A stretch of 59,431 bases of DNA from the IMG/VR virus record IMGVR_UViG_3300011691_000001, one strand, 5' to 3'. The notes under the pieces are model-generated. The model did no database searches and was not told where the DNA came from. It saw only the letters and a list, made by a program, of their open reading frames with translations. This DNA comes from an uncultured virus (IMG/VR IMGVR_UViG_3300011691_000001). Lineage: Duplodnaviria; Heunggongvirae; Uroviricota; Caudoviricetes. Both the position numbers and the translations under genes were made by a program. Within the stretch, counting starts at the first letter, position 1. Each line of letters begins with the position of its first letter. Positions 2,591-39,061 of the stretch are shown here, one piece after another.

Positions 2591-2625
2591 AAGGAACATT
2601 TTAATAAAATAAATACATAAATAAC

Positions 2626-2654
2626 TTTACTTTGTATTAAAAATAACTTATACT
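2626..2654 (+). promoter_or_regulatory. sigma-A-type promoter for the repression operon
   Basis: TTTACT-N17-TATACT, preceded by AAATACATAA. Confidence 0.6.
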
Positions 2655-2686
2655 GTTAATAATAAGAGTATAAGGGGGAAGTTGTA

Positions 2687-3739
2687 GTGGTAGCTTTGAA
2701 TACAGTCAAGTTGGAAAATTATATCGGTGATCACATTGAAGCCTTCTTAAATGAATACAAATCAAATTCAATACACAGTTATAAGAGTTACAAAAGCAGC
2801 TTGAACAAATTATTTAAAGATATATTAAATAAAAGCGACTTTAAATTCATAACGGTTTCTGATATAGAAGGATTGACGGTACATGTATTAAAAGAATACT
2901 TCAATACGTTACATGAAGAAGTAAATACTGATGATGAACCGAAGCATAAAAATTCAACAATAAATAAGCACATTTCGGTTATAAAGAAGTTCATTGAGTA
3001 TTTAGCAGCTTGGGATATAATTTCATATGATGTAAATAAGCTATCACTACTTAAATTCTTCCCTGATACAAGAGAAGAAATTGAAATGATACCATTTGAA
3101 TTAGCAATGAAGTACACTTCTTACTTTAGAAGTGAGGATCAAGGGTTGGAAAAACAATTAATAATTAAATTAGCTATTGAAACTGCTCTTAGAGCAACCG
3201 AATTATTAGAGTTGAAGTGGAGTAACTTTACAGTTGTTGAAGATGGTGTAATCATGAAATCTCATGGAAATAATAAAGGTAAAGGGAATAAAGAGTGGAT
3301 TGATAAAATAAATAAAGAATTATACGAAGAACTTTTACATTTAAAGTACTTAGGGAATGATCATAAGTTATTTACTCTCACATACAAACAATTAACTGGT
3401 ATGATGGATAGAGGAAATGAACTTTTAAATGACACTGGAGTTAAATATTCATTCCATTCATTTAAAAAATTAGCTGTGACAATGTGTTACTTAAATAATA
3501 ACAACTGTATTGATACTGCAATGAAGAAAGCTCGTCACAGTAATGTTAATACGACTATGAGGTATCTTCGATTAACAAATTTAAATGTTACTGGTATAAT
3601 ATCATCTAAATTAAATACGGAACAAGATATTTATAAAACAGTATCATACGAATTACTTTTAGAAGCATTAAGTGAAATGCGTCCAGAAATGCTTCTACTT
3701 TTAAATAATAAAATAAAAAATAAGAAAAATAATATGTAA
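2687..3739 (+). CDS. tyrosine recombinase family protein (SPbeta YopP/SroD-like)
   Basis: ETALRATEL (R), KGK (K), FHSFKK (HxxK), ARHSN (H), TMRY (Y); first gene of the trio. Confidence 0.85.
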   Translation: MVALNTVKLENYIGDHIEAFLNEYKSNSIHSYKSYKSSLNKLFKDILNKSDFKFITVSDIEGLTVHVLKEYFNTLHEEVNTDDEPKHKNSTINKHISVIKKFIEYLAAWDIISYDVNKLSLLKFFPDTREEIEMIPFELAMKYTSYFRSEDQGLEKQLIIKLAIETALRATELLELKWSNFTVVEDGVIMKSHGNNKGKGNKEWIDKINKELYEELLHLKYLGNDHKLFTLTYKQLTGMMDRGNELLNDTGVKYSFHSFKKLAVTMCYLNNNNCIDTAMKKARHSNVNTTMRYLRLTNLNVTGIISSKLNTEQDIYKTVSYELLLEALSEMRPEMLLLLNNKIKNKKNNM

Positions 3740-3802
3740 TAATTAATGAAAAAATAATTACTAGATGATAAAATATCATTTGTAATTAAGGGAGGGAAAT
3801 TA

Positions 3803-5143
3803 ATGAAATTAGGTAAAGATAATGAACAATTAGAGATTGAAGTTAAAAGTTTAATAAATGCTTTTTCATCTAATGTAGACAAAGATGAAGTAGATTTAAT
3901 TGTTGAACACCTAAATATGAAACATGGTATTGAAAGTGCTAAGATTTATTCCTTATTTAACAATGTTAATAATGTAAGTAAGTTAGAATTTGAAGAGATT
4001 GCATTATTTGGGCAGCAATTAGTCGTTAAATTAGGAATGAACCAGAGTGAATGGATGAATGAATGGTTTACTGATCGTGAACAAAAAGAAATTGGTGGAT
4101 ATCAATTTGTAGGATCTTCATCAACAGATATTATTGATTTCCCAATGACAATTCATAATGTAACTGACTTAGGTGATGGTTATTATAATGCAACCCTGAC
4201 AAGAAAAGAATTGGCTAGATTATATAAATCAGGAAAGTTAGATTATAACGCCAATGTTCAACGTGGTATGAAGAAAGTTGTTCGGTTTGGCGTAGAAATA
4301 GAGAAGCCAATTATTTATCAAAGTAAAATTACTCAAATTAGAAATGAAATTTTAAAAGGTGTTTTAAGACCAACTACAATTACACTTAATGCACATCAAA
4401 TGACTGCTCTAGAAGGGGTAGAACTTGTATACGATGATAAAAATCATACTCTAAAAATAAATGAAGGTACTGTTTTAGATATTGTTGATGGAATGCATAG
4501 GCTATTAGGTAATTACAGTGCTTATAATAAAGACTCTAATATCAAAGGTTCTTTCCCAATAACAATTTCTAATAAATCAGATGCTGAAGTTAAGAGATAT
4601 CAAGTTGATCTGGATAAACATACTCCACTATCAAGAAGTCGAGTAGAAGAGTTAGATAATAAATCATATTCAAATGAAGTTGTGAATATTTTAAAAGTAG
4701 AGGGACAACTGAAAAATAGAATAACATCTGCAAGTGATGCTAAGTCATCTATAAAAGGTAGTGACTTTACGACATATAAGATAATTAATACGCAAATAAA
4801 TAATGTATTTAAACTAGAGAGTATATTAGACGCAAGAAAACTAGCAAAATCTATTAATGAATATTTGGTTTACTTATTTGGAATTTATAAAAAATATATT
4901 GTTAGTGATTATAACCTAATATTTGACGCAGATGTATTTGAAGGACACTTACATTTAATCAAGTTAATGAATGATGAAGGTGTATCTTATGAAAAGATAG
5001 AAGATATTATAGATATAAATGAATTCCATAAGTCAGAATCCAAATTAAGTAAAATTATTAATGGGAATATGAAATTAAATGCAAAAGACCGCAAAGCATT
5101 GATTAAATTATTTACAGATATGTATAAGAAAGGCGTGAAGTGA
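3803..5143 (+). CDS. DGQHR/DndB/ParB-fold protein (SPbeta YopQ/SroE-like)
   Basis: VQRG and IVDGMHRL motifs; synteny between two recombinase-fold genes. Confidence 0.75.
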   Translation: MKLGKDNEQLEIEVKSLINAFSSNVDKDEVDLIVEHLNMKHGIESAKIYSLFNNVNNVSKLEFEEIALFGQQLVVKLGMNQSEWMNEWFTDREQKEIGGYQFVGSSSTDIIDFPMTIHNVTDLGDGYYNATLTRKELARLYKSGKLDYNANVQRGMKKVVRFGVEIEKPIIYQSKITQIRNEILKGVLRPTTITLNAHQMTALEGVELVYDDKNHTLKINEGTVLDIVDGMHRLLGNYSAYNKDSNIKGSFPITISNKSDAEVKRYQVDLDKHTPLSRSRVEELDNKSYSNEVVNILKVEGQLKNRITSASDAKSSIKGSDFTTYKIINTQINNVFKLESILDARKLAKSINEYLVYLFGIYKKYIVSDYNLIFDADVFEGHLHLIKLMNDEGVSYEKIEDIIDINEFHKSESKLSKIINGNMKLNAKDRKALIKLFTDMYKKGVK

Positions 5144-6129
5144 TTATGTATAATGAGGAATACAAGAAATCATTTCTTGAAACATTAAATTTATCTGAAT
5201 CATCTTTGAAAACCTACTACTCAATATTTAATAAAACAGAACCGTTTGAACGAAAACATGAAACTGATTTATACGACATGGATAATTCCATGTTGGATCT
5301 ATTATTTAGGCAAGCGAAAAGACAAACAAAAAGGTCAGCAATTATATTTATTAATACTATTAAAAACTATATTACATGGGCAATTGATAACGGACATAGT
5401 GCTTCACCAACACACCCTATTGTAGATGTTATCAATGACGAATACGTTTCTACTTATGTATGGAATGCAGGTAAAAATTATTATAATAGAGAAGAACTAC
5501 TTAAAAAAATTGAATTACTGGATAACAACAGAGACATGGCTATTGTACTTTTATTGTTTGAAGGTATAGTTGGATCTTCATTTTCTGAAATAAGAAACTT
5601 AAGAATAGATGATATAACTACAAAAGATGATAAATTCTTTTTGAATGTACTTTCTGATGAAATAAACTTAACGAGTAGACAAATTGAAATTACAAAAGAA
5701 CTACATGATTTATTAATCAAAACATATAATACATCTGAAATAAAAAGTCCTAGTGGGAAAATGGCTCGATTAGTTGACGGGGAATATATATTTAGAAAAA
5801 ATAGACTTGGAAAAGATAATGATGTTCGTATAACTCCATCTATGATAAGTACTATAATAATGCAGCGAATAAAAGACTCATTTAGTGACAGTAACATTAC
5901 TGCAACTACTATAGAGATAAGCGGCATGATGTGGTATGCAAATGAATGGATGAACGAAAAGGGAAATCGAATCTTTGATTTAAATATTGTTGAAAAACTA
6001 GTTAAAAAATATAATTTAAGTACAATAAGCTTGAATAATAAAGAATATCCTCAGCTACAAAGGATCAGAGAAACAATGGATTTTGACTATATGCAAGATG
6101 AATTTGGTCACTTTGAAGTAAAAATATAG
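5140..6129 (+). CDS. MrpR (YopR/SroF)-like lytic-cycle master repressor, catalytically degenerate tyrosine-recombinase fold
   Basis: MYNEEYKKSFL N-terminus; LLFEGI..SEIRNLR lacks catalytic R and HxxR; synteny. Confidence 0.78.
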   Translation: MIMYNEEYKKSFLETLNLSESSLKTYYSIFNKTEPFERKHETDLYDMDNSMLDLLFRQAKRQTKRSAIIFINTIKNYITWAIDNGHSASPTHPIVDVINDEYVSTYVWNAGKNYYNREELLKKIELLDNNRDMAIVLLLFEGIVGSSFSEIRNLRIDDITTKDDKFFLNVLSDEINLTSRQIEITKELHDLLIKTYNTSEIKSPSGKMARLVDGEYIFRKNRLGKDNDVRITPSMISTIIMQRIKDSFSDSNITATTIEISGMMWYANEWMNEKGNRIFDLNIVEKLVKKYNLSTISLNNKEYPQLQRIRETMDFDYMQDEFGHFEVKI

Positions 6130-6141
6130 AAAACAGAAAGA

Positions 6142-6162
6142 CTGAATGAATTTATCATTCAG
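6142..6162 (+). terminator. putative intrinsic terminator
   Basis: CTGAATGA...TCATTCAG hairpin after repressor gene. Confidence 0.45.
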
Positions 6163-6272
6163 CTCTCTTATACATATAAATATATAAATATATAAAAGAA
6201 ATTTGATATTTTTCAAGAGTATATAAATTATAAGATAATTAATATGTTCTTAAAAAATATCGAACAAAAATA

Positions 6273-6286
6273 CGAACAAATGTTTT
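6273..6286. promoter_or_regulatory. LexA (DinR/Cheo) SOS box
   Basis: CGAACAAATGTTTT matches Bacillus CGAAC-RNRY-GTTY consensus, just upstream of a -35. Confidence 0.7.
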
Positions 6287-6296
6287 CATTTTGAGA

Positions 6297-6325
6297 TTGA
6301 CAATATTTAAGTCAATTGGTAAAAT
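6297..6325 (+). promoter_or_regulatory. strong sigma-A promoter
   Basis: TTGACA-N17-TAAAAT with TG extended -10. Confidence 0.8.
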
Positions 6326-6393
6326 TGTATTAATAAAGCAACTATTTATATCATAGATAAGCTAATTAATAAAAAAAGGGGGAATATATAATT

Positions 6394-6843
6394 ATGACAA
6401 TAGTAGCAAAGATTCAGTCTGAAGTAGTGATTCAGAACAACAACCCAGAAGAATTGTTGTCACTTTATGATAGGCTAATACCTACTAATGGACTACAGGT
6501 AACAAATGTGAGAGGTAATAAACTAATAGCAGAATGCTCAGATTTCCATTTTGTTGAAATTGCTGAGATAACTGAAGATGGAGACTTAATTGAACTATTT
6601 AAACGTACACCAGAAGTAAAATACTATCTTTCTGAAAATAAATCTTTCAATATGGATGATTTGATTAGAATTGATGGTAGAGGTGACTACAGCTTAATTT
6701 TAATGCACAATAATATATTTTTATATAATGCAGAAGATTTAACTACAATGGAAGCAGGTAGTGCAACTAGTATAGATGAGATAACAAAATACTTAAATAT
6801 TAACTATCCAAGTTACGAAGTACTGAGGAAAATTAAGGGGTGA
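6394..6843 (+). CDS. hypothetical protein (first gene after the SOS-boxed promoter)
   Basis: 149-aa ORF with GGGGG RBS. Confidence 0.7.
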   Translation: MTIVAKIQSEVVIQNNNPEELLSLYDRLIPTNGLQVTNVRGNKLIAECSDFHFVEIAEITEDGDLIELFKRTPEVKYYLSENKSFNMDDLIRIDGRGDYSLILMHNNIFLYNAEDLTTMEAGSATSIDEITKYLNINYPSYEVLRKIKG

Positions 6844-6950
6844 ATTTGATAATGTTGTCTTTGTGAGAATATGATGTGGTATGGTAATGGAGCCAATATC
6901 ACATCAATATAAATATAAAATGCATAAATACATAAAAAGGTGGTTATAAA

Positions 6951-7130
6951 ATGAATAATATTTCGTTTGCAATTGATCTTTTTGTTATACCTAATAGATG
7001 GGGAGAGGGCTACAAAATAATAAGGGATGAAGATGGTTACATCTATGAAAAAACATACAAGTCGAAAAATGCTGCAAATGATTGGATACTATACATAAAT
7101 GATTTATTAATTAATTCAAAGAACCTTTGA
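6951..7130 (+). CDS. small hypothetical protein (59 aa)
   Basis: Translated by hand; AAGGTGG RBS. Confidence 0.5.
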   Translation: MNNISFAIDLFVIPNRWGEGYKIIRDEDGYIYEKTYKSKNAANDWILYINDLLINSKNL

Positions 7131-7185
7131 AATGTGTATACGCTTGGTTAATATGAAGTAATTTAAAAAAGGCAGGTGAAATTCA

Positions 7186-7578
7186 ATGTTAAAGATATAT
7201 ACAGACAGTAGCTATAAGGATGGTACTTCAACGCACCATTACTTTGTAATGAAAGGGAATAATAAAATTAAAAGAAGAACATTTATAGGATTTGATTCAT
7301 CGTCTATGAAAGCTGAAGCAACTACAATCATAAAGGCTTTACAAATGGTATTAAAGAAAGATTGGGAAGGGGTGACAATATATACAGATTCATTAGCGAC
7401 AGTGTTTGGTGTTAAACATGGAAACTTTAGTAATGAAGATTATCGATACATAGCACATTTACTTAAAGTAACAAAATCCAATATTAATTGGAAGAACAGA
7501 AAGCATCATCAGATTAAGATTGCTGATGCAGAATGTCGTAAGATGATGCAAACTAAACTTAGAAGAGTAGTAATTTAA
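7186..7578 (+). CDS. RNase H-like protein
   Basis: KIYTDSS, KAEA, IYTDSL, KIADAEC acidic motif pattern. Confidence 0.75.
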   Translation: MLKIYTDSSYKDGTSTHHYFVMKGNNKIKRRTFIGFDSSSMKAEATTIIKALQMVLKKDWEGVTIYTDSLATVFGVKHGNFSNEDYRYIAHLLKVTKSNINWKNRKHHQIKIADAECRKMMQTKLRRVVI

Positions 7579-7605
7579 ATACGTATACATAAAGGTGAGA
7601 TAAAA

Positions 7606-7845
7606 ATGAATAAGGATATTGAAAATTTAAGAAACACTTTTGATTTTATTATTAATGACTATGATAATGGATCAATGTTTAAAGATGATGACAGTATGAA
7701 GTCTTGGATTGCTAAATGTGAATGGTTTGTTAAACAGATGGTTGACATTAAAGTAGGTGTAGGATTCAAGTATTTTGAGTTACAAAGGGAATATAATCCA
7801 CTTCAAGAGAACAATAAGGTTGGAGAAGGTGAAGAGTCTGAATAG
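7606..7845 (+). CDS. hypothetical protein
   Basis: ORF with AAGGTGA RBS. Confidence 0.55.
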   Translation: MNKDIENLRNTFDFIINDYDNGSMFKDDDSMKSWIAKCEWFVKQMVDIKVGVGFKYFELQREYNPLQENNKVGEGEESE

Positions 7846-8011
7846 ATATAATGAAATTAATGTGATTGGTTGTTGTGCCAATAAGGAATGCTCAAATGAG
7901 TTAAGCAGAAAAGACGAGTACCTTATTGACGATTCTAATTTATATTGTGATTCCATATGCTATGCTAAATACATGCTGAGTGTTGGAGCAGTAAAAGAAG
8001 TTAGATATTAA
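7838..8011 (+). CDS. small Cys-rich protein (probable CTG start)
   Basis: AAGGTGA RBS before CTG at 7838; CCANKEC...YCDSIC. Confidence 0.5.
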   Translation: MNRYNEINVIGCCANKECSNELSRKDEYLIDDSNLYCDSICYAKYMLSVGAVKEVRY

Positions 8012-8039
8012 ATAAATACATAATTGGAGAATATACATA

Positions 8040-8312
8040 ATGAATCAATACATAGTTTCGCTAGTCTTAAATGGTGATGAATATAACATGAATGTAAAGA
8101 CAAAAAGCAAAGAATCTGCTTTACAATATGCGAAGGACAAGCTTAAATTTGACAAAATAATAGGTGTTGCAGAAAAGCTAGAATTTAAACGTAAACGATT
8201 TGGTTATTTAGGAAATCCAGATCGCACTCCATACGGAAGCAAAAGTAAAGATATTAAGGTAGCTAAAAATACTAAACGTGGTAAGTCTGCTCAAAAGAAG
8301 TTCGTAAAATAA
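8040..8312 (+). CDS. basic hypothetical protein
   Basis: GGAG RBS. Confidence 0.6.
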   Translation: MNQYIVSLVLNGDEYNMNVKTKSKESALQYAKDKLKFDKIIGVAEKLEFKRKRFGYLGNPDRTPYGSKSKDIKVAKNTKRGKSAQKKFVK

Positions 8313-8337
8313 TACATACATAAAAGGAGATTATATT

Positions 8338-8670
8338 ATGAATAAAAATAAACATGTGTTACATAGTTTGAAGAATGGTGATATTATTCGATTTCCAAAT
8401 GATGAATTTGATTATATAGTACGCCATACAGGATTGCGATACGTATTTGCAGGTTCTGATTGTGGTTGCGTATATACTGTGATCGATAAAAAGGACGAAA
8501 TTTTAGCATCAACTACAATGCTGTTTGAAGAATTCGCTAACTTTACCGTTGTAGGAAACCCTCAAAAATTAGAAATGTTGTTAACTAACGGTGAGCGTGA
8601 GTTATCTAGAAAATATCGTGATACATTTCAAGCATTTAATTTATACAAAGGGAAGGTAATTAAAGCGTAA
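8338..8670 (+). CDS. hypothetical protein
   Basis: AAAGGAG RBS. Confidence 0.6.
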   Translation: MNKNKHVLHSLKNGDIIRFPNDEFDYIVRHTGLRYVFAGSDCGCVYTVIDKKDEILASTTMLFEEFANFTVVGNPQKLEMLLTNGERELSRKYRDTFQAFNLYKGKVIKA

Positions 8671-8719
8671 TAAAATAATACATATCATATACATACAACA
8701 TATATATAGAAATGGAGAA

Positions 8720-9313
8720 TTGGATATGCGTAAAGATATTATGGTTGATATTGAAACACTAGGTACTGGAGAAAATGCAACTGTATTTCAAATTTCAGCA
8801 ATGAGCTTCAACATTCAAACAGGGGACAAGCATGATTCGATTAATTTGATTGGAGATATTGAAAAGTACAGCAGCTTAAATGTCGATGGTTCAACTTTAA
8901 AATGGTGGTTAAATACAGATAAAGAATTACTTACTGAATTACTGAATAAAGGTACATACGAGGAATATGACTTATTTGAAGCTCTACATAAATGGTTAGA
9001 GAATCAATCAACTACAGGAGATATGAAGGATGTTTACTTGTGGGGTAATGGTATTTTATTCGATAATGCTAAATTACAAACTAATTTGAACGGCTGTAGT
9101 GGGTTAAAGTATCCAATCTATTATAAAAATGATCGTGATGTTCGTACAATCTTAGAATTAGCTAGTATGAAATCAGGATTAACTGAAGAAGAAATTAAAG
9201 AGTCTGTAACAGATGAGAATGAACGTAAACATGATGCTTTTGATGACATTTCTTATCAAATTAGATTAGTAGTTGAATGTTACAAAATTTTGATGAATAA
9301 AGAGGTGGAATAA
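8720..9313 (+). CDS. 3'-5' exonuclease/exoribonuclease (DEDDh, Rv2179c-like)
   Basis: MVDIETLG, WGNG..FD, RDVRT, HDAFDD motifs. Confidence 0.82.
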   Translation: MDMRKDIMVDIETLGTGENATVFQISAMSFNIQTGDKHDSINLIGDIEKYSSLNVDGSTLKWWLNTDKELLTELLNKGTYEEYDLFEALHKWLENQSTTGDMKDVYLWGNGILFDNAKLQTNLNGCSGLKYPIYYKNDRDVRTILELASMKSGLTEEEIKESVTDENERKHDAFDDISYQIRLVVECYKILMNKEVE

Positions 9314-9318
9314 ATATT

Positions 9319-10020
9319 ATGGATAAAATAATTATTTATACTGATGGAGCATGTTCAGGTAATCAAAATGAAACTAACTATGGTGGTTGGGGAGTAGTGT
9401 TAAGACAAGGTGAAAATACAAAAGAATTGTTTGGTGGAGCAGTAAATACAACGAATAATAAGATGGAATTACAAGGAGCTATTGAAGGACTAAAAGCGTT
9501 AAATAAAACTAATATTCCAGTAGAGTTGTATTCAGATAGTAATTATGTGATTCAAGGTATTACTTCTTGGATTCATGGATGGAAAAAGAATGGTTGGAAG
9601 AATGCAAGCAAGAAACCTGTTGAAAATAAAGAATTGTGGATCGAATTAGATGAATTAAAAAGCAAATTTAAGGACATTCAATTCATTAAGGTTAAAGGTC
9701 ATAACGGAGTGGAATTAAATGAATTAGCGGATGATCTAGCTAACAAGGGAGTTGAACAAGCTAAATTAGATTCAAAAAATGCAGTAAACGAAATTAAAGA
9801 AGTGATCAAAGAGGAAATAGCCCAGAGCCATATAAGTATATGGGACAAATTAAAATTACAAATTGATAATCTAGAGATAATGTACAAACAATCTTTATCA
9901 GGAGCAGATATTGGTACATCTGTTTATTGGCAAGTTGAAACAATCAATGAAATTTTAAAAGGATTAGAAGAGCAAGTAGGTGCTGATAAAGTACGAGAAA
10001 AGTATACCGAAGCTTTTTGA
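9319..10020 (+). CDS. rnhA: ribonuclease HI with C-terminal extension
   Basis: YTDGACSGN, TTNNKMEL, SDSNYV, WKKNGWK, VKGH, NELAD. Confidence 0.9.
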   Translation: MDKIIIYTDGACSGNQNETNYGGWGVVLRQGENTKELFGGAVNTTNNKMELQGAIEGLKALNKTNIPVELYSDSNYVIQGITSWIHGWKKNGWKNASKKPVENKELWIELDELKSKFKDIQFIKVKGHNGVELNELADDLANKGVEQAKLDSKNAVNEIKEVIKEEIAQSHISIWDKLKLQIDNLEIMYKQSLSGADIGTSVYWQVETINEILKGLEEQVGADKVREKYTEAF

Positions 10021-10057
10021 TAATACCACTCTATTATTAAAAAAGGAGAAGATGTAG

Positions 10058-10642
10058 ATGACATTCAAATTTCCAAAAGAATATGAAGAAAAATTGAAAC
10101 AGGAAAATGATTTAAAGTATGTATTATTTGAGGATGGATCACAGAAGCATATATCTGAATTTGAAAATAAGAGTATAACACCAGATGAATATCATACTTT
10201 TAGAATGAATTCTTATGCTAGAAATGATATTTATCCTAAATTAACGAACGAAACATTACTTGAACAGGCTGAGTATTACATTTCACAATGCCATAAGCCA
10301 TATAGAATAAGCACATATAATGATGCGATTATTCATTTGATTTTACCTGAATTAATAAATAGATTTAAAAAATTGCAGTTATCTGACGTAAGTAAAGAAG
10401 AGTCTTCTATTCAATATTATAATGAAATGAAAATATTAGAAGAAAGTTTGAAAATATATAAAAATGAAAACGAATTGTACGAGACTTCTACTCACATTGA
10501 TGATTTTATGTACGAGTTACATCCAAATGAAAAAGGTGAAATTCCAATACTAATTAAAGTTCATGATGTAGAACATAGTTTAGGAATTACAGAAAAAGAT
10601 GCATATTCATTTATTCATATATTCCAAATGCATAAGGATTAA
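10058..10642 (+). CDS. hypothetical protein
   Basis: 194-aa ORF, AAAGGAG RBS. Confidence 0.65.
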   Translation: MTFKFPKEYEEKLKQENDLKYVLFEDGSQKHISEFENKSITPDEYHTFRMNSYARNDIYPKLTNETLLEQAEYYISQCHKPYRISTYNDAIIHLILPELINRFKKLQLSDVSKEESSIQYYNEMKILEESLKIYKNENELYETSTHIDDFMYELHPNEKGEIPILIKVHDVEHSLGITEKDAYSFIHIFQMHKD

Positions 10643-29609: not shown

Positions 29610-29610
29610 G

Positions 29611-30315: not shown

Positions 30316-31020
30316 ATGAACGAATCCAAAAAGTCTTTTATTGTAACAACCATTATTACATGTACATTGGCGTGGACTTGGTTTATATCACATGTCATTG
30401 AAGAAAATAATAATGAAGGTACAAATGAATTCTTAGATGCTGCCAATCTTATAGAAAGGATCAAAGAGAACACTATTACAAGTAAAGTTGACTCATTCTA
30501 TATTGAGTTTGAGCGTTTAAAGGAAGAAGAGCGAAAAAGATTAGAGGAATTGGAACGACAACGCTTAGATAGGTTAGAAAAAATTAGATTAGCTAAAATT
30601 GAAGAAGCAAAAAAGATAGCTGAACAAAAACGAATTGAAGAGTTAAAGAAGCAACAGCAGCGAGAAAAAGTAATAAGTAGAGGCGATACAAATAATACAG
30701 GAAATTGGATGACTTTTAATGCAAGCTATTACACAGCATATTGTTCAGAAGGATGTACAGGAGTTACAGCAACAGGTTATGATGTTTCTAATACCATTTA
30801 TTATAATGGATTAAGAATTATTGCAACCGATCCAAATGTAATTAAGTTGGGAACAATTGTGGAAGTAAAAACTCCATTTGAAACCTTTAAGGCGATTTCA
30901 CTTGATACAGGTGGGGCTATTAAGAATCACAAGGTAGATATCTTAGTTTCATCTACACAAGAAGCTATTAATTTAGGAAGACATAATATTCAAATCAAAG
31001 TATTAAAAACTCCAAAATAA
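30316..31020 (+). CDS. membrane-anchored 3D-domain cell-wall protein
   Basis: N-terminal TM, coiled coil, ASYYTA..TATG..IATDP..LGT..DTGGAIK..VDI. Confidence 0.88.
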   Translation: MNESKKSFIVTTIITCTLAWTWFISHVIEENNNEGTNEFLDAANLIERIKENTITSKVDSFYIEFERLKEEERKRLEELERQRLDRLEKIRLAKIEEAKKIAEQKRIEELKKQQQREKVISRGDTNNTGNWMTFNASYYTAYCSEGCTGVTATGYDVSNTIYYNGLRIIATDPNVIKLGTIVEVKTPFETFKAISLDTGGAIKNHKVDILVSSTQEAINLGRHNIQIKVLKTPK

Positions 31021-31084
31021 TACATAAAAAATAGAGTGGGGTAGTTATTCTACCTCAACTCAGTTCTAAGGAAGGTGAATTTTA

Positions 31085-31462
31085 TTGAAGTTTAGGAAAA
31101 GAATCAAGTGGATTAAAAGACTTAAGAAGCTAAAAGTTAAATTAAGAGATTTATTATTCAAGAAACCATTTTATAAATACCTTTATCAGCATATTAAGAA
31201 TGAATTCACTAATAACAATAAAACTGCAATTAGGTACTATATGAATGCCAATACTTTACGTGACGAGTCATTTAAATTTGAAATTGAACTATATCATAAA
31301 GCATATTATACTTCGTTTGATTTAAGGTATTTGGAACAAATCTTTATGTTCACAAAGGACTACATTACAGAAAAGGTAAGTAAGTATTCTGATCTGCAGT
31401 TTATTTATGGAGAAGATGAACTTGGTCTGTATTTTGAAGTAAGCTACATTGATAGTTATTAA
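31085..31462 (+). CDS. hypothetical protein
   Basis: AAGGTGA RBS, TTG start. Confidence 0.55.
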   Translation: MKFRKRIKWIKRLKKLKVKLRDLLFKKPFYKYLYQHIKNEFTNNNKTAIRYYMNANTLRDESFKFEIELYHKAYYTSFDLRYLEQIFMFTKDYITEKVSKYSDLQFIYGEDELGLYFEVSYIDSY

Positions 31463-31491
31463 AAATTAATTAAATAAATACATAATAATAC

Positions 31492-31519
31492 TTGAAATAT
31501 TAGAACGTGATGATATAAT
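31492..31519 (+). promoter_or_regulatory. sigma-A-type promoter for the nucleotide metabolism operon
   Basis: TTGAAA-N16-TATAAT with TG, preceded by TAAATAAATACATAA. Confidence 0.65.
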
Positions 31520-31660
31520 AAAATCATACAACAAGTAAGGGAGATGAGAAGATGAAAGTCAGTGATTCAGTATTGGAGTACTATGGTTATAAATTTGTAA
31601 ATTGTAAGATTCACGAATCTGAAGGAATTACTTTTGAGGAATACCTTAAACGAGAGTTAG

Positions 31661-32092
31661 GTGATTAATTTGACCAAAGACACTTTAAAAGAAGTCATTC
31701 AGTTTGAAAAGGATTTAGCATTTGTTAGGGATTTTTTAGATAAGCTTCCTAAAGAGGTGGAATATTTATTACAATTAGTTGATCAGAAACAACGTGAACA
31801 AGAAGACTTATTACATCACATTGAGTTTGAAACGCTACCTGCTAATAAGGGCTACGAAGCATATCGCAAATTACATATAGTTAGGAATGAACGTAGGAAA
31901 GCTAAGGATATGTTGGATGTTATGAAAAGTGCAAATGACAAGTTAAAACCTAAGCTTCCAAACATAAGTATTTTCAACAATACATTAGGTGATGTAAGAG
32001 GAATTATTAATAAGCAGAAGAATAGAAATTATAAACCTAGAGTACTGACAGAGATAACATATGGAAATAATAATACATATACAAATACATAG
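31661..32092 (+). CDS. conserved phage coiled-coil protein
   Basis: EDLLHHIE...RRKAKD...YKPR pattern. Confidence 0.65.
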   Translation: MINLTKDTLKEVIQFEKDLAFVRDFLDKLPKEVEYLLQLVDQKQREQEDLLHHIEFETLPANKGYEAYRKLHIVRNERRKAKDMLDVMKSANDKLKPKLPNISIFNNTLGDVRGIINKQKNRNYKPRVLTEITYGNNNTYTNT

Positions 32093-32097
32093 GGATT

Positions 32098-32604
32098 GTG
32101 GTGATTAATATAAATTATATTATAGTAGGAACTGATTGTAGTGGTAAGACAAGTTTAGTTGATATGCTTTCTGACATTACAGAGTTTAAAGTGGTTAAGG
32201 GAAGCTCATTTTCTCATTCGCAATGTACTCAAGATGAATTGTTTGAGAAGTTCTTAGAGTTCACGAAGATGGATAATGTAGTATTCGATAGGTTCACTTA
32301 TTGTAATGAAGTATATGCGGAGATGTATGATGACTTTGCAATGTTATCAGATGAGCAGCGTAGATTTATTGAACAAGAAATGAAAAATAAAGCGACAATC
32401 ATTTACTTATATGCAGATGATGAAGTATTAGAGAATCGATTTAATTCTCGTGGTGATGATTATGTATCACTGGATAAGTTGAAATATGCTAAAGGTAAAT
32501 ACGAAAAAGCATTACATAAGGTTGAACATTTAGAAGTAGTTAAATTTGATACTGGAAAGATGACTACAAAAGAAATAGTGGAACAGATATTACTCAATTA
32601 TTAG
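32098..32604 (+). CDS. nucleoside monophosphate (dTMP-type) kinase
   Basis: GTDCSGKTS P-loop, FDRF. Confidence 0.8.
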   Translation: MVININYIIVGTDCSGKTSLVDMLSDITEFKVVKGSSFSHSQCTQDELFEKFLEFTKMDNVVFDRFTYCNEVYAEMYDDFAMLSDEQRRFIEQEMKNKATIIYLYADDEVLENRFNSRGDDYVSLDKLKYAKGKYEKALHKVEHLEVVKFDTGKMTTKEIVEQILLNY

Positions 32605-32646
32605 TTTAATTAATACATAATAAATATAAATGAAAGAGGTTTTGTA

Positions 32647-32862
32647 ATGAAATTATATACACAAACGATTTGCCCTAAATGTATGTTAGCTAAAGTATGG
32701 ATTAATGAATCAGGGAAGAATGTAGAATTAATTAACTTGGATCATAATGAAGAATTACGTGACGAATTAAAATCAAAAGGATATTCTTCGTTACCTATTC
32801 TAGAAGTAGATGACACGCTCTACACTGATATTAAAGAAATTCAGGACATTATTGAACAATGA
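32647..32862 (+). CDS. nrdH: NrdH-like glutaredoxin
   Basis: CPKC motif, SLP; upstream of nrdI. Confidence 0.8.
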   Translation: MKLYTQTICPKCMLAKVWINESGKNVELINLDHNEELRDELKSKGYSSLPILEVDDTLYTDIKEIQDIIEQ

Positions 32863-33221
32863 TTATTTATGCAAGTCGAACAGGCAATGTCAGATACATA
32901 GTAAGTAAATTAGATTTACCATCAATCGAAATCACCGAAAGTTTAATAGTTAACGAACCATACATAATATTTACATACACAGATAAATTGGGGGAGGTTC
33001 CTGAAAAGGTAGAAAACTTCCTTCAACTGAATCACGAATTTTGCAAAGGCGTAATAGCAAGTGGAAACAGTAACTTTGGAAAGAAAATGTTCTGTGAATC
33101 AGCACAAAAGATTAGTGATCAATATAATATTCCAATAATCCATAAGGTTGAGTTAAGAGGATTTCAATATGATTATGATTTGATTGTTGAGAAATATAAC
33201 AAATTAATACAGGGTGAGTGA
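32859..33221 (+). CDS. nrdI: class Ib RNR flavodoxin NrdI
   Basis: YASRTGNVR, GVIASGNSNFG. Confidence 0.9.
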   Translation: MIIYASRTGNVRYIVSKLDLPSIEITESLIVNEPYIIFTYTDKLGEVPEKVENFLQLNHEFCKGVIASGNSNFGKKMFCESAQKISDQYNIPIIHKVELRGFQYDYDLIVEKYNKLIQGE

Positions 33222-35319
33222 TAATTTGAAAGAGTACTTAAAGTTGAATAATGAGGTTTTAAATACATATGAACGAACTGGAAGATTAGTATCAGAAAAA
33301 GATAAAGAAGCAACTAGGAAGTACTTCTTAGAGCATGTGAATGTTAAGTTACGATACTTTATTGATCTAGAAGAAAAACTTAAATACCTTGTGTCAGAAG
33401 GTTATTATGAAAAAGAATTCTTAGACATGTACTCATTTGATTTCATTAAGAAAATCTATAAGATTGCATATTCATATAATTTCCGTTTCCCTTCATTTAT
33501 GAGTGCAAGCAAATTCTATGATAGTTATGCAATGAAGAGTCGTGATGGGGAGGAAATCTTAGAAAAATACGAGGATAGAATTTCTATAATTGCATTGTAC
33601 CTTTCCCAAGGTGATGAGCATCTAGCAGAGAAATCAGTAAGGGTAATGATGGAAGCCTATCAACCTGCGACACCTACTGCCTTAAATAGTGGTAAGAAAG
33701 CTCGTGGCGAATTAGTAAGTTGCTTTAAATTATCCATGGATGACTCCATGAATAGCATCGCTGAAAATATTGGTTATTGTTTAGAGCTATCACGTCTAGG
33801 TGGAGGGGTCGGGGTCAACTTAACTGATTTACGTCCTTTAGGTGATCCAATTAAAGAAATACTAAATCGTGCAAGTGGTGTGATTCCAGTGGCGAAGCTA
33901 TTAGAAAATTCTTTTAGTTATTCTAATCAGCTTGGTCAACGTAATGGCTCAGGAGTTGTTTACCTAAATATTTTCCATGCAGATATAGAGAATTTTATTT
34001 CATCAAAAAAACCAAATGCTGATGATAAAATTCGCCTCGCAACACTATCAACAGGTATTATTATACCAAGTATTTTCTTTGAGTTAATGAAAAAGGATAA
34101 GGATATTGTTCTATTTAGCCCATATGACATCCATAAGGAATATGGCAAGCGTATGTCTGAAATCAGTATTACTGATATGTACTATGAGTTACTAGATAAT
34201 CCTAGAATTCGAAAAATTAAACGTCTAAATGCACGTAATTTATACACTGAAGTAAAAAAAGCACAATTTGAATCAGGATATCCTTTTGAAATATTTGATG
34301 ATAATGTAAACGAAGTACATCCACTCAAAGGTATTGGACGAGTACAAATGTCTAACCTCTGTTCGGAAATCCTACAATTACAACAAAAAAGTATTATCAC
34401 TGATCAAGATCAGCCTAACGAATATGGGTTAGATGTGTCATGTAATTTAGGGTCGATTGATATTCATGCAGCAGTTGAATCAGATAGCTTTGAAGATTTA
34501 ATTGACACATCAATGCGGTTACTTACAAATGTTACAACAAAGACCAATATTGTGAATGTACCATCTGTTGCAAAAGCCAATCAATTAATGCATTCCGTAG
34601 GTTTGGGAGTTATGAACCTTCATGGTCATTTAGCAACACAAGATATTATGTACGGCTCTCCTGATTCGATTAAATTTGTAGATCATTTTATGGAAGCGTT
34701 GAACTATTACTCACTTAAATCATCAATGGTGTTAGCTAAAGAAAAATGCGAAAGTTTCTTTGGATTTGAGAAGAGTGAATATGCGAATGGCAAATACTTT
34801 GATGCGTATGTTTCCAAAGAAGACACATTACCAAATCAGAAAGTGCAAAAAGCACTAGGTAACGTACCAATTATAACTTCTGCGATGTGGAAGAAACTTA
34901 AATTAGAAGTAATGAAATTTGGTCTATTTCATTCATATCGTTTAGCTACTGCACCTACAGGAAGTATCAGTTATATTCGAAGTTGTACAGCATCAATGTC
35001 TCCGATTACTGAAAGAGTAGAAATTCGTGATTATGCTGATAGTCGTACAATTTATCCTATGCCATACATGACTAATGACAATATGCATTTATATCAAGAA
35101 GCATACGATGTTAACCCTTATAAATTAATTGATTTATATGCTGCGGCACAAAAACATGTTGACCAAGGTATTTCAATGACACTATATGTAACGGATCAAT
35201 GGACAACAGAACAACTAGCTAAAGTTTACATTTATGCATGGATTAAAGGGATTAAGTCCGTTTACTATGTCCGTCAACGATTACTGAGCTTAGAGGAGTG
35301 TGTAGCATGTCAAATATAG
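33214..35319 (+). CDS. nrdE: class Ib ribonucleotide reductase alpha subunit
   Basis: QPATPT, VSCF, SNLCSE, APTGSISY, C-terminal CVAC. Confidence 0.95.
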   Translation: MSDNLKEYLKLNNEVLNTYERTGRLVSEKDKEATRKYFLEHVNVKLRYFIDLEEKLKYLVSEGYYEKEFLDMYSFDFIKKIYKIAYSYNFRFPSFMSASKFYDSYAMKSRDGEEILEKYEDRISIIALYLSQGDEHLAEKSVRVMMEAYQPATPTALNSGKKARGELVSCFKLSMDDSMNSIAENIGYCLELSRLGGGVGVNLTDLRPLGDPIKEILNRASGVIPVAKLLENSFSYSNQLGQRNGSGVVYLNIFHADIENFISSKKPNADDKIRLATLSTGIIIPSIFFELMKKDKDIVLFSPYDIHKEYGKRMSEISITDMYYELLDNPRIRKIKRLNARNLYTEVKKAQFESGYPFEIFDDNVNEVHPLKGIGRVQMSNLCSEILQLQQKSIITDQDQPNEYGLDVSCNLGSIDIHAAVESDSFEDLIDTSMRLLTNVTTKTNIVNVPSVAKANQLMHSVGLGVMNLHGHLATQDIMYGSPDSIKFVDHFMEALNYYSLKSSMVLAKEKCESFFGFEKSEYANGKYFDAYVSKEDTLPNQKVQKALGNVPIITSAMWKKLKLEVMKFGLFHSYRLATAPTGSISYIRSCTASMSPITERVEIRDYADSRTIYPMPYMTNDNMHLYQEAYDVNPYKLIDLYAAAQKHVDQGISMTLYVTDQWTTEQLAKVYIYAWIKGIKSVYYVRQRLLSLEECVACQI

Positions 35320-36281
35320 TTTATGAGGCAGTCAACTGGAATAAGACATCAAGTGAACTTGCTCAAGTTTTCTGGGATCAGCAATGGAAGCAAATCTGGT
35401 TTCCTGAAGAAATTGCAGTGAGTAAAGATATTCAACAGTGGAAAAGTTTTGAGCATCAGGGCACGTATAAAAAAGTGTTCGCAGGATTAACTTTACTTGA
35501 TACTGTCCAGACAAATATAGGAATGAATCGCGTTGCAGCTTATACAGACGATTTACAGGAAAAGGCGGTATTAACTGTTTTTGATGCATTTGAAGCAATT
35601 CATGCTAAATCATATTCGTATATATTTACAACGCTCTGTACAAATAAGGAAATAGAAGAACTCTTTGAATGGATTAAAAAGAATGAATTTCTACAATACA
35701 AGGCAAATAAAATTGCAGATATTTATACATCAATTAAAGAAAATGACAATGAATCTTTATGGAAAGCAATGTTTGCTTCAGTAATGTTGGAGAGCTTCTT
35801 ATTTTATTCAGGATTCTTCTATCCATTATATTTAGGTGGACAAGGGGTATTGCGTAATAGCGCAGAGATAATTTCGCTTATATTACGAGATGAATCTATA
35901 CATGGCGTAGCTGTTGGATTTTTTGCACAAGGTATTTTCAGCAAGTTTGACGCTGAAAAGCAAAACGAATTAAAAGTATGGGGATATGAATTGTTACTAG
36001 ACTTATATCAAAATGAAATGAAATACACTGACGACATCTATGCAGAGACAGGATTAAGTCCTGATGTTAAAGCTTATGTAAGATATAACGCTAACAAAGC
36101 CTTAATGAATCTTGGATTAGATACTATGTTCCCAGACGAGGAAGTTAATCCTATAGTAATGAACGGTATTCGTAATGAAGGAAGTACCTATGACTTCTTT
36201 TCACAAAAGGGAGCTACCTATGCTAAAGCTAAAGTAGTACCAATTAGCGATGACACATTTAACTTTTCAAACTTAAATTAA
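35307..36281 (+). CDS. nrdF: class Ib ribonucleotide reductase beta subunit
   Basis: GLTLLDT, EAIHAKSYS, ESFLFYSGF, RDESIHG. Confidence 0.95.
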   Translation: MSNIVYEAVNWNKTSSELAQVFWDQQWKQIWFPEEIAVSKDIQQWKSFEHQGTYKKVFAGLTLLDTVQTNIGMNRVAAYTDDLQEKAVLTVFDAFEAIHAKSYSYIFTTLCTNKEIEELFEWIKKNEFLQYKANKIADIYTSIKENDNESLWKAMFASVMLESFLFYSGFFYPLYLGGQGVLRNSAEIISLILRDESIHGVAVGFFAQGIFSKFDAEKQNELKVWGYELLLDLYQNEMKYTDDIYAETGLSPDVKAYVRYNANKALMNLGLDTMFPDEEVNPIVMNGIRNEGSTYDFFSQKGATYAKAKVVPISDDTFNFSNLN

Positions 36282-36298
36282 AAGGGGAAATCTTTATT

Positions 36299-36799
36299 AT
36301 GAATTTAAATGACACATTATATTTCGCAAAAGTAAAAGAAAATGCAGTTATTCCAACTAAACGAAAAGAAGATGGATGTTATGACATCTATATATTGTTT
36401 AATGAGGATGAAGTAACAATTAAACCGCACGAAATTGTTGGATTTAATACAGGAATTGCAACAGCAGTGAGTTACAAGTATCGTCTTGACTTCAAACGTG
36501 AACGTGGTTCAACAGGATCAATTGGTTTAGTACCTCGATGTGGACAAGTGGATAGTGGATATCGTGGTGAAGTTTTCTTAAAACTACAAAATACAACTAA
36601 TAAAAACATTGTAATTTCTAAGTTAGTTACTGATAAAGTAGAAACTAAAACAGAAGTTAAATATCCAATTACTAAAGCAGTTTGTCAAATGGCAGTTGAA
36701 ATTGTACCAGAAGTAATAGAAGAAGTGATTTCTTATGAAGAATTATTAAAGATTCCATCTGAACGTGGTACAGGTGCTTTAGGTAGTAGTGGTAAATAA
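36299..36799 (+). CDS. dut: trimeric dUTPase
   Basis: GQVDSGYRGE, RGTGALGSSG. Confidence 0.9.
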   Translation: MNLNDTLYFAKVKENAVIPTKRKEDGCYDIYILFNEDEVTIKPHEIVGFNTGIATAVSYKYRLDFKRERGSTGSIGLVPRCGQVDSGYRGEVFLKLQNTTNKNIVISKLVTDKVETKTEVKYPITKAVCQMAVEIVPEVIEEVISYEELLKIPSERGTGALGSSGK

Positions 36800-36924
36800 T
36801 AAAATCTATATTGTATATATGATAATTTGAAATATTTAGTGGTATTAATATCATATTTGTATCACTGAATTTCAATAAAACATGGATATTATTAAAAATA
36901 CATAACTAAGGGGAGATTGATTTA

Positions 36925-37278
36925 ATGAAAAAATCACGTAAACAACGTAAATCAGAAGCAAAACAAAATGGAGTACCTTTTGAGCCACAATATAATGGTA
37001 ATGGAGTAATTTCATTTGAAGAACATTCTGGACTTGGAATTGAACGATTTAACAATAAGTTTGTACAGTTTTCAAAGCCTTCAGAACTACCAAATGAGGT
37101 ATCAGAAGGAACTTTGATTGACAATAATGATGTTGAAGCTTTATCAGATGATATTCTAATTGCAAATGAGCGAACTAATGATGAAATGATTGAGGCAGAG
37201 TTAGCATTAGACACTCCTAAAAAGAAGAAAAAGAAAAGTAAGTTTAAAAAAGTACTTAAGAAGCTTTTTAATAAATAA
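36925..37278 (+). CDS. hypothetical protein with basic termini
   Basis: GGGGAG RBS; follows palindrome 36875. Confidence 0.65.
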   Translation: MKKSRKQRKSEAKQNGVPFEPQYNGNGVISFEEHSGLGIERFNNKFVQFSKPSELPNEVSEGTLIDNNDVEALSDDILIANERTNDEMIEAELALDTPKKKKKKSKFKKVLKKLFNK

Positions 37279-37349
37279 AATACATAACTTTATATGAGAG
37301 TGGATTAATTTCTACTCTCATTACTTTTTACATAAAGGAGAATATAATA

Positions 37350-38234
37350 ATGCAGGTAGATTTAGTATACAAAGATTTGGTTAAGAAAGTTTTGTCAAAT
37401 GGAATTAAGAAAGGGGATCGTACAAATACAGGAACAATTAGTTTATTCGGCAACCAAATTGAAATTGACTTACAAGAAGGCTTTCCGTTATTAACAACAA
37501 AGAGAGTTTACTGGAAAGGTATATTATCTGAAACAATCATGTTTCTGAAAGGTATTACTGATTTAAAATTTCTACTCGAAAAAGATGTTGATATTTGGAC
37601 TCGTGATGCATATAAGAAGTATTTGAAAGAGATGAGTGAATACTCAGATGCACTAACATTTACTTTAGATGAGTTTCGTGAAGATGCAAAAATAAATGGT
37701 TATGATTTAGGAGTAATCTATGGATCTCAGTGGGTTGATTTTAATGGTGAAGGAGTAAATCAGTTAAGTTATTTAAATGAAGAAATTAAAAATAATCCTA
37801 ACAGTAGACGTTTAAAAGTTTATTCTGCTAATCCATCAAAAGTACATAATCAAACATTACCACCATGTCATGATGCATTTCAATTTAATGTTCGTGGTGA
37901 ATATCTAGATTGTTTATTTCAAATGAGATCAAGTGATATTTTTCATGGACTACCATTTAATATTGCGAGTTATGCCTTGATTACACATATCCAAGCAAAA
38001 ATGAGGGGTTTAAAGGTGGGAAGATTGGTTGCTCAATTAGGTGACACTCATATATATACAACTCATCTAGATGCAATTAAAGAGCAGTTAAAGCGAGAAC
38101 CTAAAGTACTACCTCAATTAAATCTAAGTGATAGGGTATCAACATTTGAAAGTATTTCAGAAATTGAATTCGAGGATATTGAGTTATTAAATTACAGTCC
38201 ACATTCACCAATAAAAGCACCTCAAGCATTTTAA
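37350..38234 (+). CDS. thyA: thymidylate synthase
   Basis: DRTNTGT, FPLLTTK, LPPCH, RSSDIFHGLPFNIASY. Confidence 0.95.
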   Translation: MQVDLVYKDLVKKVLSNGIKKGDRTNTGTISLFGNQIEIDLQEGFPLLTTKRVYWKGILSETIMFLKGITDLKFLLEKDVDIWTRDAYKKYLKEMSEYSDALTFTLDEFREDAKINGYDLGVIYGSQWVDFNGEGVNQLSYLNEEIKNNPNSRRLKVYSANPSKVHNQTLPPCHDAFQFNVRGEYLDCLFQMRSSDIFHGLPFNIASYALITHIQAKMRGLKVGRLVAQLGDTHIYTTHLDAIKEQLKREPKVLPQLNLSDRVSTFESISEIEFEDIELLNYSPHSPIKAPQAF

Positions 38235-38345
38235 ATAAAAAGAGTGAATGCAATGAAGCACTCACTTAAAGGAAGATGCGGTTTAGTCACAATTACATTT
38301 TACAATTTTAACCCATATATAGTCAATTTTGAGCAGGAGGATTTA

Positions 38346-38876
38346 ATGTCAATTAATATCATTGCAGCTTTAAATGAAACACACTCAATTGGTAAGAATG
38401 GACAATTACTATATAGAATTAAAAAGGATTTGCAGCGATTCAAACAACTCACTCAAAGTAATAGTGGTCATCCAAATATATGCTTGATGGGCAAAAGAAC
38501 ATTTGAAGAATTACCTAAACCATTAGATAAAAGATTAAACGTAGTTTTAACTTCGAATAAGAAATACAAAGCTCCTAAAGAAGTAATAATAGAATCATCT
38601 TTTGATAAGGTAATTAATCATTATTTGGAATCTGGTAATCAGGATAAAGATTTATGGATTTGCGGTGGACAGTCTTTATATGAACAAGCTTTACCGTTTG
38701 CTGATAAAGTTTTTATTACCTACATACATGATAATAAAAAAGGTGATACGCAATTTCCATTTGAACAAGTTAAACAGCAATTCAAGAAAATACATAGCGA
38801 AGAACATGAAGAAAATGGACTAAGGTTTGAATTCATTAACTATGAAAGAAAGGAGGTTACGAATGGGGAAACTTAG
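38346..38876 (+). CDS. dfrA: dihydrofolate reductase
   Basis: IGKNGQL, MGKRTFEEL.KPL..RLNVVLT, CGGQSLY, GDTQFP. Confidence 0.92.
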   Translation: MSINIIAALNETHSIGKNGQLLYRIKKDLQRFKQLTQSNSGHPNICLMGKRTFEELPKPLDKRLNVVLTSNKKYKAPKEVIIESSFDKVINHYLESGNQDKDLWICGGQSLYEQALPFADKVFITYIHDNKKGDTQFPFEQVKQQFKKIHSEEHEENGLRFEFINYERKEVTNGET

Positions 38877-39015
38877 GAATAAGCCAATTTTAAAAGAAAT
38901 TACATATGGAGAAAGAGAACCGTCATTCGAAGAGAAGAATAAAGCAGTGAATGGACTAGAAGAGGTACTTATAAACATGTTCCTTCATTATTATAAAACG
39001 AATAAAAATAAATAA
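38863..39015 (+). CDS. small protein, candidate recombination directionality factor (SprB-like)
   Basis: 50 aa, AGGAGG RBS, last gene of the early operon and directly before the serine recombinase. Confidence 0.45.
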   Translation: MGKLRNKPILKEITYGEREPSFEEKNKAVNGLEEVLINMFLHYYKTNKNK

Positions 39016-39022
39016 ATACATA

Positions 39023-39061
39023 AAATAAGTACAAGTTATTTGAAATTACTTGTACTTATTT
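39023..39061. repeat. 14-bp perfect inverted repeat overlapping the recombinase promoter
   Basis: AAATAAGTACAAGT / ACTTGTACTTATTT; overlaps TTGAAA(39040)-N18-TATTAT. Confidence 0.7.

Follow-up and report, generated by a model that had tools for sequence, protein, structure and literature searches.

Guler et al. in 2024 reportedly described a lysis/lysogeny switch of the Bacillus phage phi3T that is tuned by the host toxin MazF and involves AimX/YosL, SroA/B, and the sro operon. The MazF-tuned switch of phi3T with AimX is also treated by Zamora-Caballero et al. (PMC10769878); further literature consulted includes PMC11323111 and PMC13714241. Operators of the SroF/MrpR repressors have been reported as Phi3TRE in phi3T and SPBRE in SPbeta (PMC10516654; bioRxiv 2025.11.27.690993), and SroF is described as binding its asymmetric box as a monomer (bioRxiv 2025.11.27.690993). 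Here, we analyze a stretch of 59,431 nucleotides from an uncultured virus of the Caudoviricetes (IMG/VR record IMGVR_UViG_3300011691_000001; its whole length is called the window below), in which an initial annotation had singled out the pentamer TACAT as a MazF cleavage site enriched in the intergenic leaders of early genes.

By gene content, the window is an SPbeta-like temperate phage. We consider it quite likely that two overlapping signals are present, namely, MazF sites at the level of RNA and an operator box of SroF at the level of DNA. The excess of MazF sites in lytic RNA combined with a site-free repressor is well supported as the known phi3T mechanism, here in a new clade. Three features look new: a site at the foot of a hairpin behind the repressor gene, a probable operator with the cut site inside it, and the apparent absence of AimR.

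The window resembles phi3T in the coding-strand excess of MazF sites in lytic genes, the site-free sroD-F cluster, a putative phage mimic of MazE, and, in the genus that is probably the host, a MazF of the EndoA type. Unlike in phi3T, neither AimR nor an SroA/B-like gene was found in the searches described below, and the single short mimic lies behind a boxed promoter, not behind aimP. Intergenic sites number 7.0 per kb in the window, against 1.9 per kb for phi3T and 1.1 per kb for SPbeta; inside genes, the densities are similar (1.4–1.5 per kb).

Excess of the MazF hexamer in early transcripts

All 29 positions given in the initial annotation read TACAT exactly, and every one of them extends to TACATA. 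The pentamer was rejected as the signal unit, as enrichment is seen only for the A-extended form.

592..39022, + strand: TACATA hexamers (MazF U^ACAUA sites), 86 in number, 34 intergenic and 52 in open reading frames (ORFs)

These 86 hexamers are among 137 copies of TACAT on the + strand of positions 1–39126, the early region, where 28.8 are expected under an order-2 Markov model. TACATA ranks first of 4096 hexamers on the coding strand of this region and is the top-ranked hexamer under each of the Markov orders 1–4. None of the sister hexamers is enriched (observed/expected under order 2: TACATC 10/11.1, TACATG 17/21.8, TACATT 24/33.2), nor is TACATA itself on the antisense strand (20 vs. 23.0 expected). 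Compared with its own letter permutations, it stands first of 60 (86 vs. a median of 26), and the strand bias and enrichment suspected in the annotation are both borne out, with the hexamer in place of the pentamer.

The enriched hexamer is the measured 6-base site U^ACAUA. In vivo, MazF of B. subtilis is reported to cut UACAU only when A follows (PMC11780869); MazF of Listeria is reported to have the same 6-base specificity, and that of S. aureus mainly so (bioRxiv 2026.08.06.743204). The cut site named UACAU in the annotation needs correcting to UACAUA.

The excess extends to both gaps and genes. In the gaps, 34 sites contrast with 4.35 ± 1.92 in 500 dinucleotide shuffles (maximum 11), and a single antisense copy is present there. 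Early genes hold 52 sites vs. 24.4 ± 3.9 in 500 synonymous-codon shuffles, spread over all three codon frames (16/15/21). Confinement to leaders, as originally proposed, does not hold, since 52 of the 86 sites lie inside genes. Even among the 29 positions initially placed in gaps, 25 are intergenic, and the other four (15308, 27246, 32074, 32086) overlap the final codons of an ORF, immediately upstream of the ribosome site that follows. The idea that the leaders are unstructured gains weak support, the sites being slightly more unpaired than permutations (mean 0.59 vs. 0.50, p = 0.016).

A site-free repressor operon and conservation of the signal

The yopP-yopQ-yopR (sroD-F) cluster, with its MrpR-type repressor, occupies positions 2687–6129 of the window.

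2687..3739, + strand: sroD/yopP-like integrase-fold gene, no TACATA
3803..5143, + strand: sroE/yopQ-like gene, no TACATA
5146..6129, + strand: homolog of the master repressor sroF/mrpR/yopR (Pfam MrpR_N_CB, E-value 3.7e-16), no TACATA

The SroF protein of the window is 30% identical to that of phi3T over 229 amino acids. We examined 66 loci, of which 51 have a complete sroD-E-F, and kept 19 representatives at <70% SroE identity. Their sroDEF operons contain 4 TACATA vs. 35.7 expected, and the flanks 399 vs. 175.7 (antisense 172 vs. 173.4), with a flank ratio of at least 1.5 in 12 of the 19. For sroE and sroF together, 32 representatives have 11 sites vs. 26.7 ± 4.3 in synonymous, codon-preserving shuffles.

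Enrichment is found as well in phi3T (66 vs. 20.4), SPbeta (65 vs. 18.4), Perkons (69 vs. 34.2), Tsamsa (82 vs. 20.2), and E3 (74 vs. 23.0). No such excess is seen in phi105 (2 vs. 9.5), SPP1 (5 vs. 13.8), four host-type loci, or the Lactococcus phage phiL47 (7 vs. 11.4), which serves as a non-enriched comparison only. The relative G007, which is complete, shows 1.8- to 3.2-fold coding-strand enrichment in both arms and keeps 14 of 20 coding sites of the window, compared with 208 of 538 permuted hexamers (p = 0.005); coding TACATA is conserved above permuted hexamers in six of seven relatives at p < 0.05.

Within the same family, three SroE-bearing loci (L025, L028, L075) show the opposite strategy, their coding DNA being nearly free of TACATA (0, 0, and 1 in ~16 kb each). 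Small sroA-like ORFs ahead of sroD contain a TACATA in phi3T, E3, and two others (L002 5678; L004; L040; L042), which could represent a feedback of MazF on its own activator. We do not claim that the repressor operon is bracketed on both sides, as upstream sites often lie in such ORFs or in the promoter box, at distances from 10 to 6307 bases.

The 14-base box at promoters and leaders

The long A-rich copies share the 14-base box AAATAAATACATAA with a TACATA core. The box occurs exactly seven times on the + strand and once on the minus strand where this is the coding strand, and 20 early copies are found at ≤2 mismatches.

2607..2620, + strand: box around a TACATA core, 5 bases upstream of the −35 (2626) in the sroD promoter; by analogy to phi3T, a putative SroF operator
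8010..8023, + strand: exact box just before a ribosome site
11003..11016, + strand: exact box, 5 bases upstream of the −35 (11022) in the promoter that precedes the MazE-like gene
11138..11151, + strand: exact box in the leader of the MazE-like gene
15062..15075, + strand: exact box, 6 bases before a −35 (15082)
31472..31485, + strand: exact box, 6 bases before a −35 (31492)
39010..39023, + strand: exact box followed by a long inverted repeat, upstream of the serine recombinase gene
52521..52534, − strand: exact box on the coding strand of the late region, before a ribosome site

The last of these confirms the copy noted earlier between minus-strand genes. With 7 coding-strand copies vs. 0 on the other strand, gaps to the −35 of 5, 5, 6, 6, and 16 bases, and two copies before a ribosome site, the box parallels the published SroF box core of phi3T (18 coding-strand copies and 0 on the other strand; four of them 5–6 bases before a −35 and seven before a ribosome site). 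Four relatives of the clade repeat the placement before the −35, at 5–7 bases across the clade, one of them (L022) with TACACA at the sroD promoter.

Like Phi3TRE and SPBRE, the candidate operator of the window is an asymmetric A-tract box on the coding strand only, standing 5–7 bases before the −35 and also before ribosome sites, in a phage that encodes a repressor of the MrpR family. Unlike them, it has the MazF hexamer in sense orientation, whereas the phi3T box is without it and the repeated promoter element of SPbeta (L005: aimR, yopM, yopV, yorE, and yorZ promoters) has it on the non-coding strand.

By this analogy, we take the box to be probably the SroF operator of the clade. The DNA-operator alternative raised in the initial annotation probably holds for the long leader copies at promoters because these sit as the phi3T SroF operator does, 5–6 bases before the −35. 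It does not explain the remaining sites because masking the 20 box-like copies leaves 64 TACATA vs. 26.0 expected, still the top hexamer. The unusually high gap density of TACATA would be due in part to a coding-strand MazF hexamer inside the putative operator box.

A TACATA hexamer at the hairpin foot behind sroF

A hairpin follows the repressor gene directly, with a MazF site at its foot, 42 bases past the sroF stop codon and 2 bases behind the hairpin.

6135..6168, + strand: hairpin after sroF (core stem-loop 6142–6162, about −11.5 kcal/mol; ≤4 U in the next 8 bases)
6171..6176, + strand: TACATA at the 3′ foot of the hairpin, likewise in phi3T, E3, Perkons, staphylococcal phages, and others

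Among 70 loci with adjacent sroE and sroF, 29 have a site within 60 bases of the sroF stop. FADO, Tsamsa, and BcoS-136, with an SroF-like gene lacking an adjacent SroE, were left out of this set, and there is neither a site nor a clear hairpin after the SroF-like gene in these three phages. The post-sroF site is present in 13 of 32 representatives, compared with 72 of 465 other long gaps (p = 0.001); a per-locus null gives 5.8 expected (p = 0.002). Each of the 13 is 0–4 bases away from the foot of a hairpin; for intergenic sites elsewhere, the figure is 37 of 239. In rows chosen for having the site, the hairpin sequences vary and the hexamer is invariant. On the SroF tree, the presence of the site changes six times and is clustered, so that the 13 cases are not independent.

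Site and U-tract were not seen together. Of 47 distinct tails, 5 have no hairpin; the 42 with a hairpin comprise 22 with a site and fewer than 6 U (none of the 22 reaches 6 U), 10 with a U-tract and no site, 10 with neither, and 0 with both, in counts that include related tails and with a U threshold chosen after the data were seen. The hairpin of the window, directly past the repressor stop codon, resembles the intrinsic terminator after yopR in SPbeta. SPbeta has a U-tract there and no site. The reverse is seen in the tails of the window, phi3T, E3, Perkons, and staphylococcal phages, where the site is present and a strong U-tract is missing. Lysogenization by SPbeta is reported to be independent of MazF and that by phi3T dependent on it.

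On the simplest reading of this arrangement, MazF may cut the repressor message free of downstream lytic RNA and leave a protective stem-loop at its 3′ end. Processing of T7 early RNA by RNase III likewise produces endonuclease-defined 3′ ends behind stem-loops. In both systems, a host endonuclease would cut polycistronic phage RNA at a structured junction; the enzyme here would differ from RNase III in belonging to a regulated toxin-antitoxin pair, in being open to inhibition by the phage, and in reading a 6-base sequence. A weaker reading of the site is a back-up cut after a leaky terminator.

Some observations weaken the case for a MazF-made end. The site is missing in 19 of the 32 representatives, 10 of the 42 hairpin tails have neither site nor U-tract, and a rank test on U counts among the representatives is not significant (p = 0.44). 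The tail of the window has 4 U in 8 bases and is listed as terminator-like by a consensus scan, and could be a weak terminator.

No earlier description of the hairpin-foot site was found in a literature search that did not cover Guler et al. 2024 or supplements. Contigs from RNA runs for the phi3T-like sro region L035 (4 of 24 runs) end at 12164 or 12173, near the sroF stop (12178), in two of three cases, and one spans it; a raw-read run yielded no reads. These contigs were not used, as contigs cannot show RNA ends.

A MazE-like peptide and the absence of AimR

11173..11358, + strand: 61-amino-acid peptide like MazE/AimX/YosL, a predicted MazF inhibitor by sequence motif and model

The peptide keeps the motif MxxGYxEMxxIN common to AimX, YosL, and host MazE, including the tyrosine required by AimX, and a search with YosL matched in all five clade records. 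Its top PDB matches are AimX (E-value 0.006) and EndoAI (E-value 0.015). Modeled with the Lysinibacillus MazF dimer, it scores 0.90 vs. 0.00 for the best control, with contact agreement of at least 88% and a partner pLDDT (predicted local distance difference test) of at least 85; the mark for such complexes is reached by 51 of 78 solved pairs and 2 of 108 mismatched pairs. The pass may stem from likeness to the solved MazE-MazF complex and speaks for likeness, not for binding. On these grounds, the peptide is predicted to be a MazE mimic and putative MazF inhibitor. A profile of the mimic matches in 0 of 5 non-enriched records (29–68% complete), 1 of 5 enriched ones, and 1 of 5 named ones, and these counts are too weak to claim a correlation with TACATA enrichment.

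The AimR profile (PF22871) matched in none of four clade records, G007–G010 (100, 93, 88, and 81% complete), with a positive control in G011, nor in the window, which is part of a genome; the clade is apparently arbitrium-less. For SroA and SroB, tblastn at E ≤ 0.05 gave no match, whether in the window, in the sequence extending it upstream, or in G007, and E ≤ 1 gives weak matches only (E 0.2–0.4), although small fast-evolving proteins may escape such a search.

Alternative explanations

That early mRNA is MazF-sensitive, as the initial annotation proposed, agrees with the hexamer match, strand specificity, spread over all codon frames, conservation, site-free repressor operon, putative MazE mimic, and EndoA-like mazEF in the likely host genus. 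The readings that would dispense with one or both signals were considered against this background.

The best surviving of them, though unlikely, holds that all copies are MazF sites only, kept single-stranded by A-rich flanks or spread by cassette duplication, and that SroF binds elsewhere. Near-matches of the box with an altered core are indeed few (19 with TACATA vs. ≤2 with any other core), the sites are slightly more unpaired than permutations, and no U-tract terminator was seen upstream of boxed promoters, so that boxed copies can lie in read-through RNA. Such a reading leaves unexplained the fixed spacing to the −35 across the clade, which is that of the phi3T repressor box, and the tolerance of the non-cleavable TACACA at one boxed promoter; moreover, no other clade-specific repeat tops the gaps.

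The converse view, that every copy belongs to a DNA operator or a promoter element (SroF box or UP element) and matches the MazF site by chance, appears improbable. It would fit the placement of the long copies, as SroF boxes in phi3T, upstream of transcription starts; a box bound by an SroF monomer would explain the strand bias (bioRxiv 2025.11.27.690993), and the SPbeta promoter repeat has the same hexamer on the opposite strand. It founders on the excess that persists after masking and on the 52 sites inside genes, in all frames and with weak flanks. Genes of phi3T, SPbeta, and E3 are equally enriched, though the top gap repeats of these phages are without sense TACATA. The sixth base is exactly that required by MazF, and the phage encodes a putative MazE mimic.

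We give very little credence to the view that leader sites serve processing rather than silencing, with MazF cutting 20–30 bases before starts and freeing single-gene messages with intact ribosome sites. The positions are suggestive, 17 of 34 intergenic sites lying 15–37 bases before a start codon and upstream of the ribosome site (permutations, 59 of 193), but many sites lie within genes, and UACAUA in a reporter 5′ leader is reported to lower expression in B. subtilis, that of neighboring cistrons included (bioRxiv 2026.08.06.743204). A compositional or codon artefact of the A-rich coding strand, conceivable at a GC content of 30.6% with strong A skew, is refuted by the survival of the excess under the Markov, dinucleotide, synonymous-codon, and permutation controls and by the sister hexamers.

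A number of points weigh against the combination of RNA-level MazF sites with an SroF operator box. The absence of TACATA from sroDEF of the window itself is not significant (0 vs. a neutral expectation of 1.6, p = 0.17), and another stretch just as long, spanning nrdE/F-dut (33264–36899), is likewise without sites. Late minus-strand genes show no general enrichment (5 vs. 4.2 in genes; 9 vs. 6.8 over 49104–59431). The flank ratio is below 1.5 in 7 of the 19 SroE-bearing representatives. The mimic profile has no match in the enriched Perkons or phi6255, nor in four of five further enriched records, two of them 96–100% complete. The box could instead be an UP element. Neither an SroA/B-like activator of MazF nor AimR was found in the clade. 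MazF cleavage at the phage sites and SroF binding to the box are both predicted from sequence, the host genus is deduced from a related element in a Lysinibacillus genome, and MazF of Lysinibacillus is presumed to have the 6-base specificity.

Gene content and likely host

Besides the repressor cluster, the window encodes a DnaE-type polymerase, nrdIEF, and a large serine recombinase; beyond these come lysis and tail genes, encoded on the minus strand. The polymerase shares 79% identity with that of Psychrobacillus phage Perkons and 71% with that of Geobacillus virus E3. Megablast of positions 1–25000 against phages gave no match, and scans of genome contigs with SroF and polymerase queries found no relative.

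11718..12338, + strand: phage sigma-factor gene, with 5 sites in 621 bases the highest density among genes >600 bases
39127..41601, + strand: large serine recombinase, no TACATA

Lysinibacillus is the probable host, as the YfkA-like gene 3′ of the recombinase is 94% identical to a copy in a genome of this genus, to which the surrounding 7.7 kb align at 78%. All four genomes behind the YfkA matches contain mazF; the Lysinibacillus genome has a single one, in the order alr-mazE-mazF-rsb, with an E-value of 3e-58 to B. subtilis EndoA.

The YfkA-like radical SAM gene is full-length and follows the recombinase (39127–42767), in the same order as in the Lysinibacillus locus L010 (7859–11104), where an inverted YfkB-domain fragment precedes the recombinase. 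This arrangement suggests that the phage targets yfkA and brings a replacement copy. A proposed protection of the integrase message by a 5′ hairpin site was dropped, as the arrangement is not kept in the two relatives inspected.

Two SOS-box-like half matches (6261–6286) stand before a strong promoter (6297–6325) and an ORF of 149 amino acids (6394–6843). The position of this ORF is that of the SOS-controlled antirepressor of phi3T, which makes it a candidate Sar analog; its sequence does not match phi3T Sar. Early genes also include a macrodomain gene, two RNase H genes, and a 3′-5′ exoribonuclease-like gene (629–1060, 7186–7578, 8720–10020). The stretch 42888–49103, inside the phage genome, contains a gene for an actin-like partition protein and one for an FtsK/SpoIIIE-type ATPase that has two conserved neighbors. 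Small ORFs at 13790–14019 and 29927–30156 share 70% DNA identity, an internal duplication. A second gap element, TAAWA-N5/6-TWTTAT-like, has 22–24 intergenic copies (1316–58725; e.g., 10021, 10984, 13580, 14457, 27445, 29885; raw counts with no null model), often begins at or just past a stop codon, and matches no Rfam family.

Implications for the lysis/lysogeny decision

Taken as a mechanism, early lytic transcripts would have been selected for many UACAUA sites, while the sroDEF repressor message has none. An active host MazF would cut the lytic RNAs while the repressor keeps accumulating, favoring lysogeny; the MazE-like peptide of the phage would block MazF and let lysis proceed. The site behind sroF would allow MazF to sever the repressor message from read-through into lytic genes, with the stem-loop capping it, and the long A-rich copies would serve as SroF operators directly upstream of early promoters and ribosome sites, an arrangement known from phi3T.

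A broader proposal is tentative, and we would not yet give it even odds. In many SPbeta-like phages whose hosts are Bacillus, Geobacillus, Psychrobacillus, Lysinibacillus, or staphylococci, no true terminator would close the repressor operon, its 3′ end being made by MazF at the hairpin foot, with read-through when MazF is inactive; phages of the MazF-independent SPbeta type would use an ordinary U-tract terminator. In the AimR-less clade, where the operator would double as a MazF site, MazF activity itself may cue lysogeny.

If true, the union of repressor operator and nuclease site in a single motif would be an unusual case of one sequence put to two uses. A 3′ end made by the toxin and protected by a hairpin would be a direct positive link from MazF to the repressor message and would explain why lysogeny requires MazF in phi3T but not in SPbeta. 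MazF would then both destroy lytic RNA and mature the repressor mRNA.

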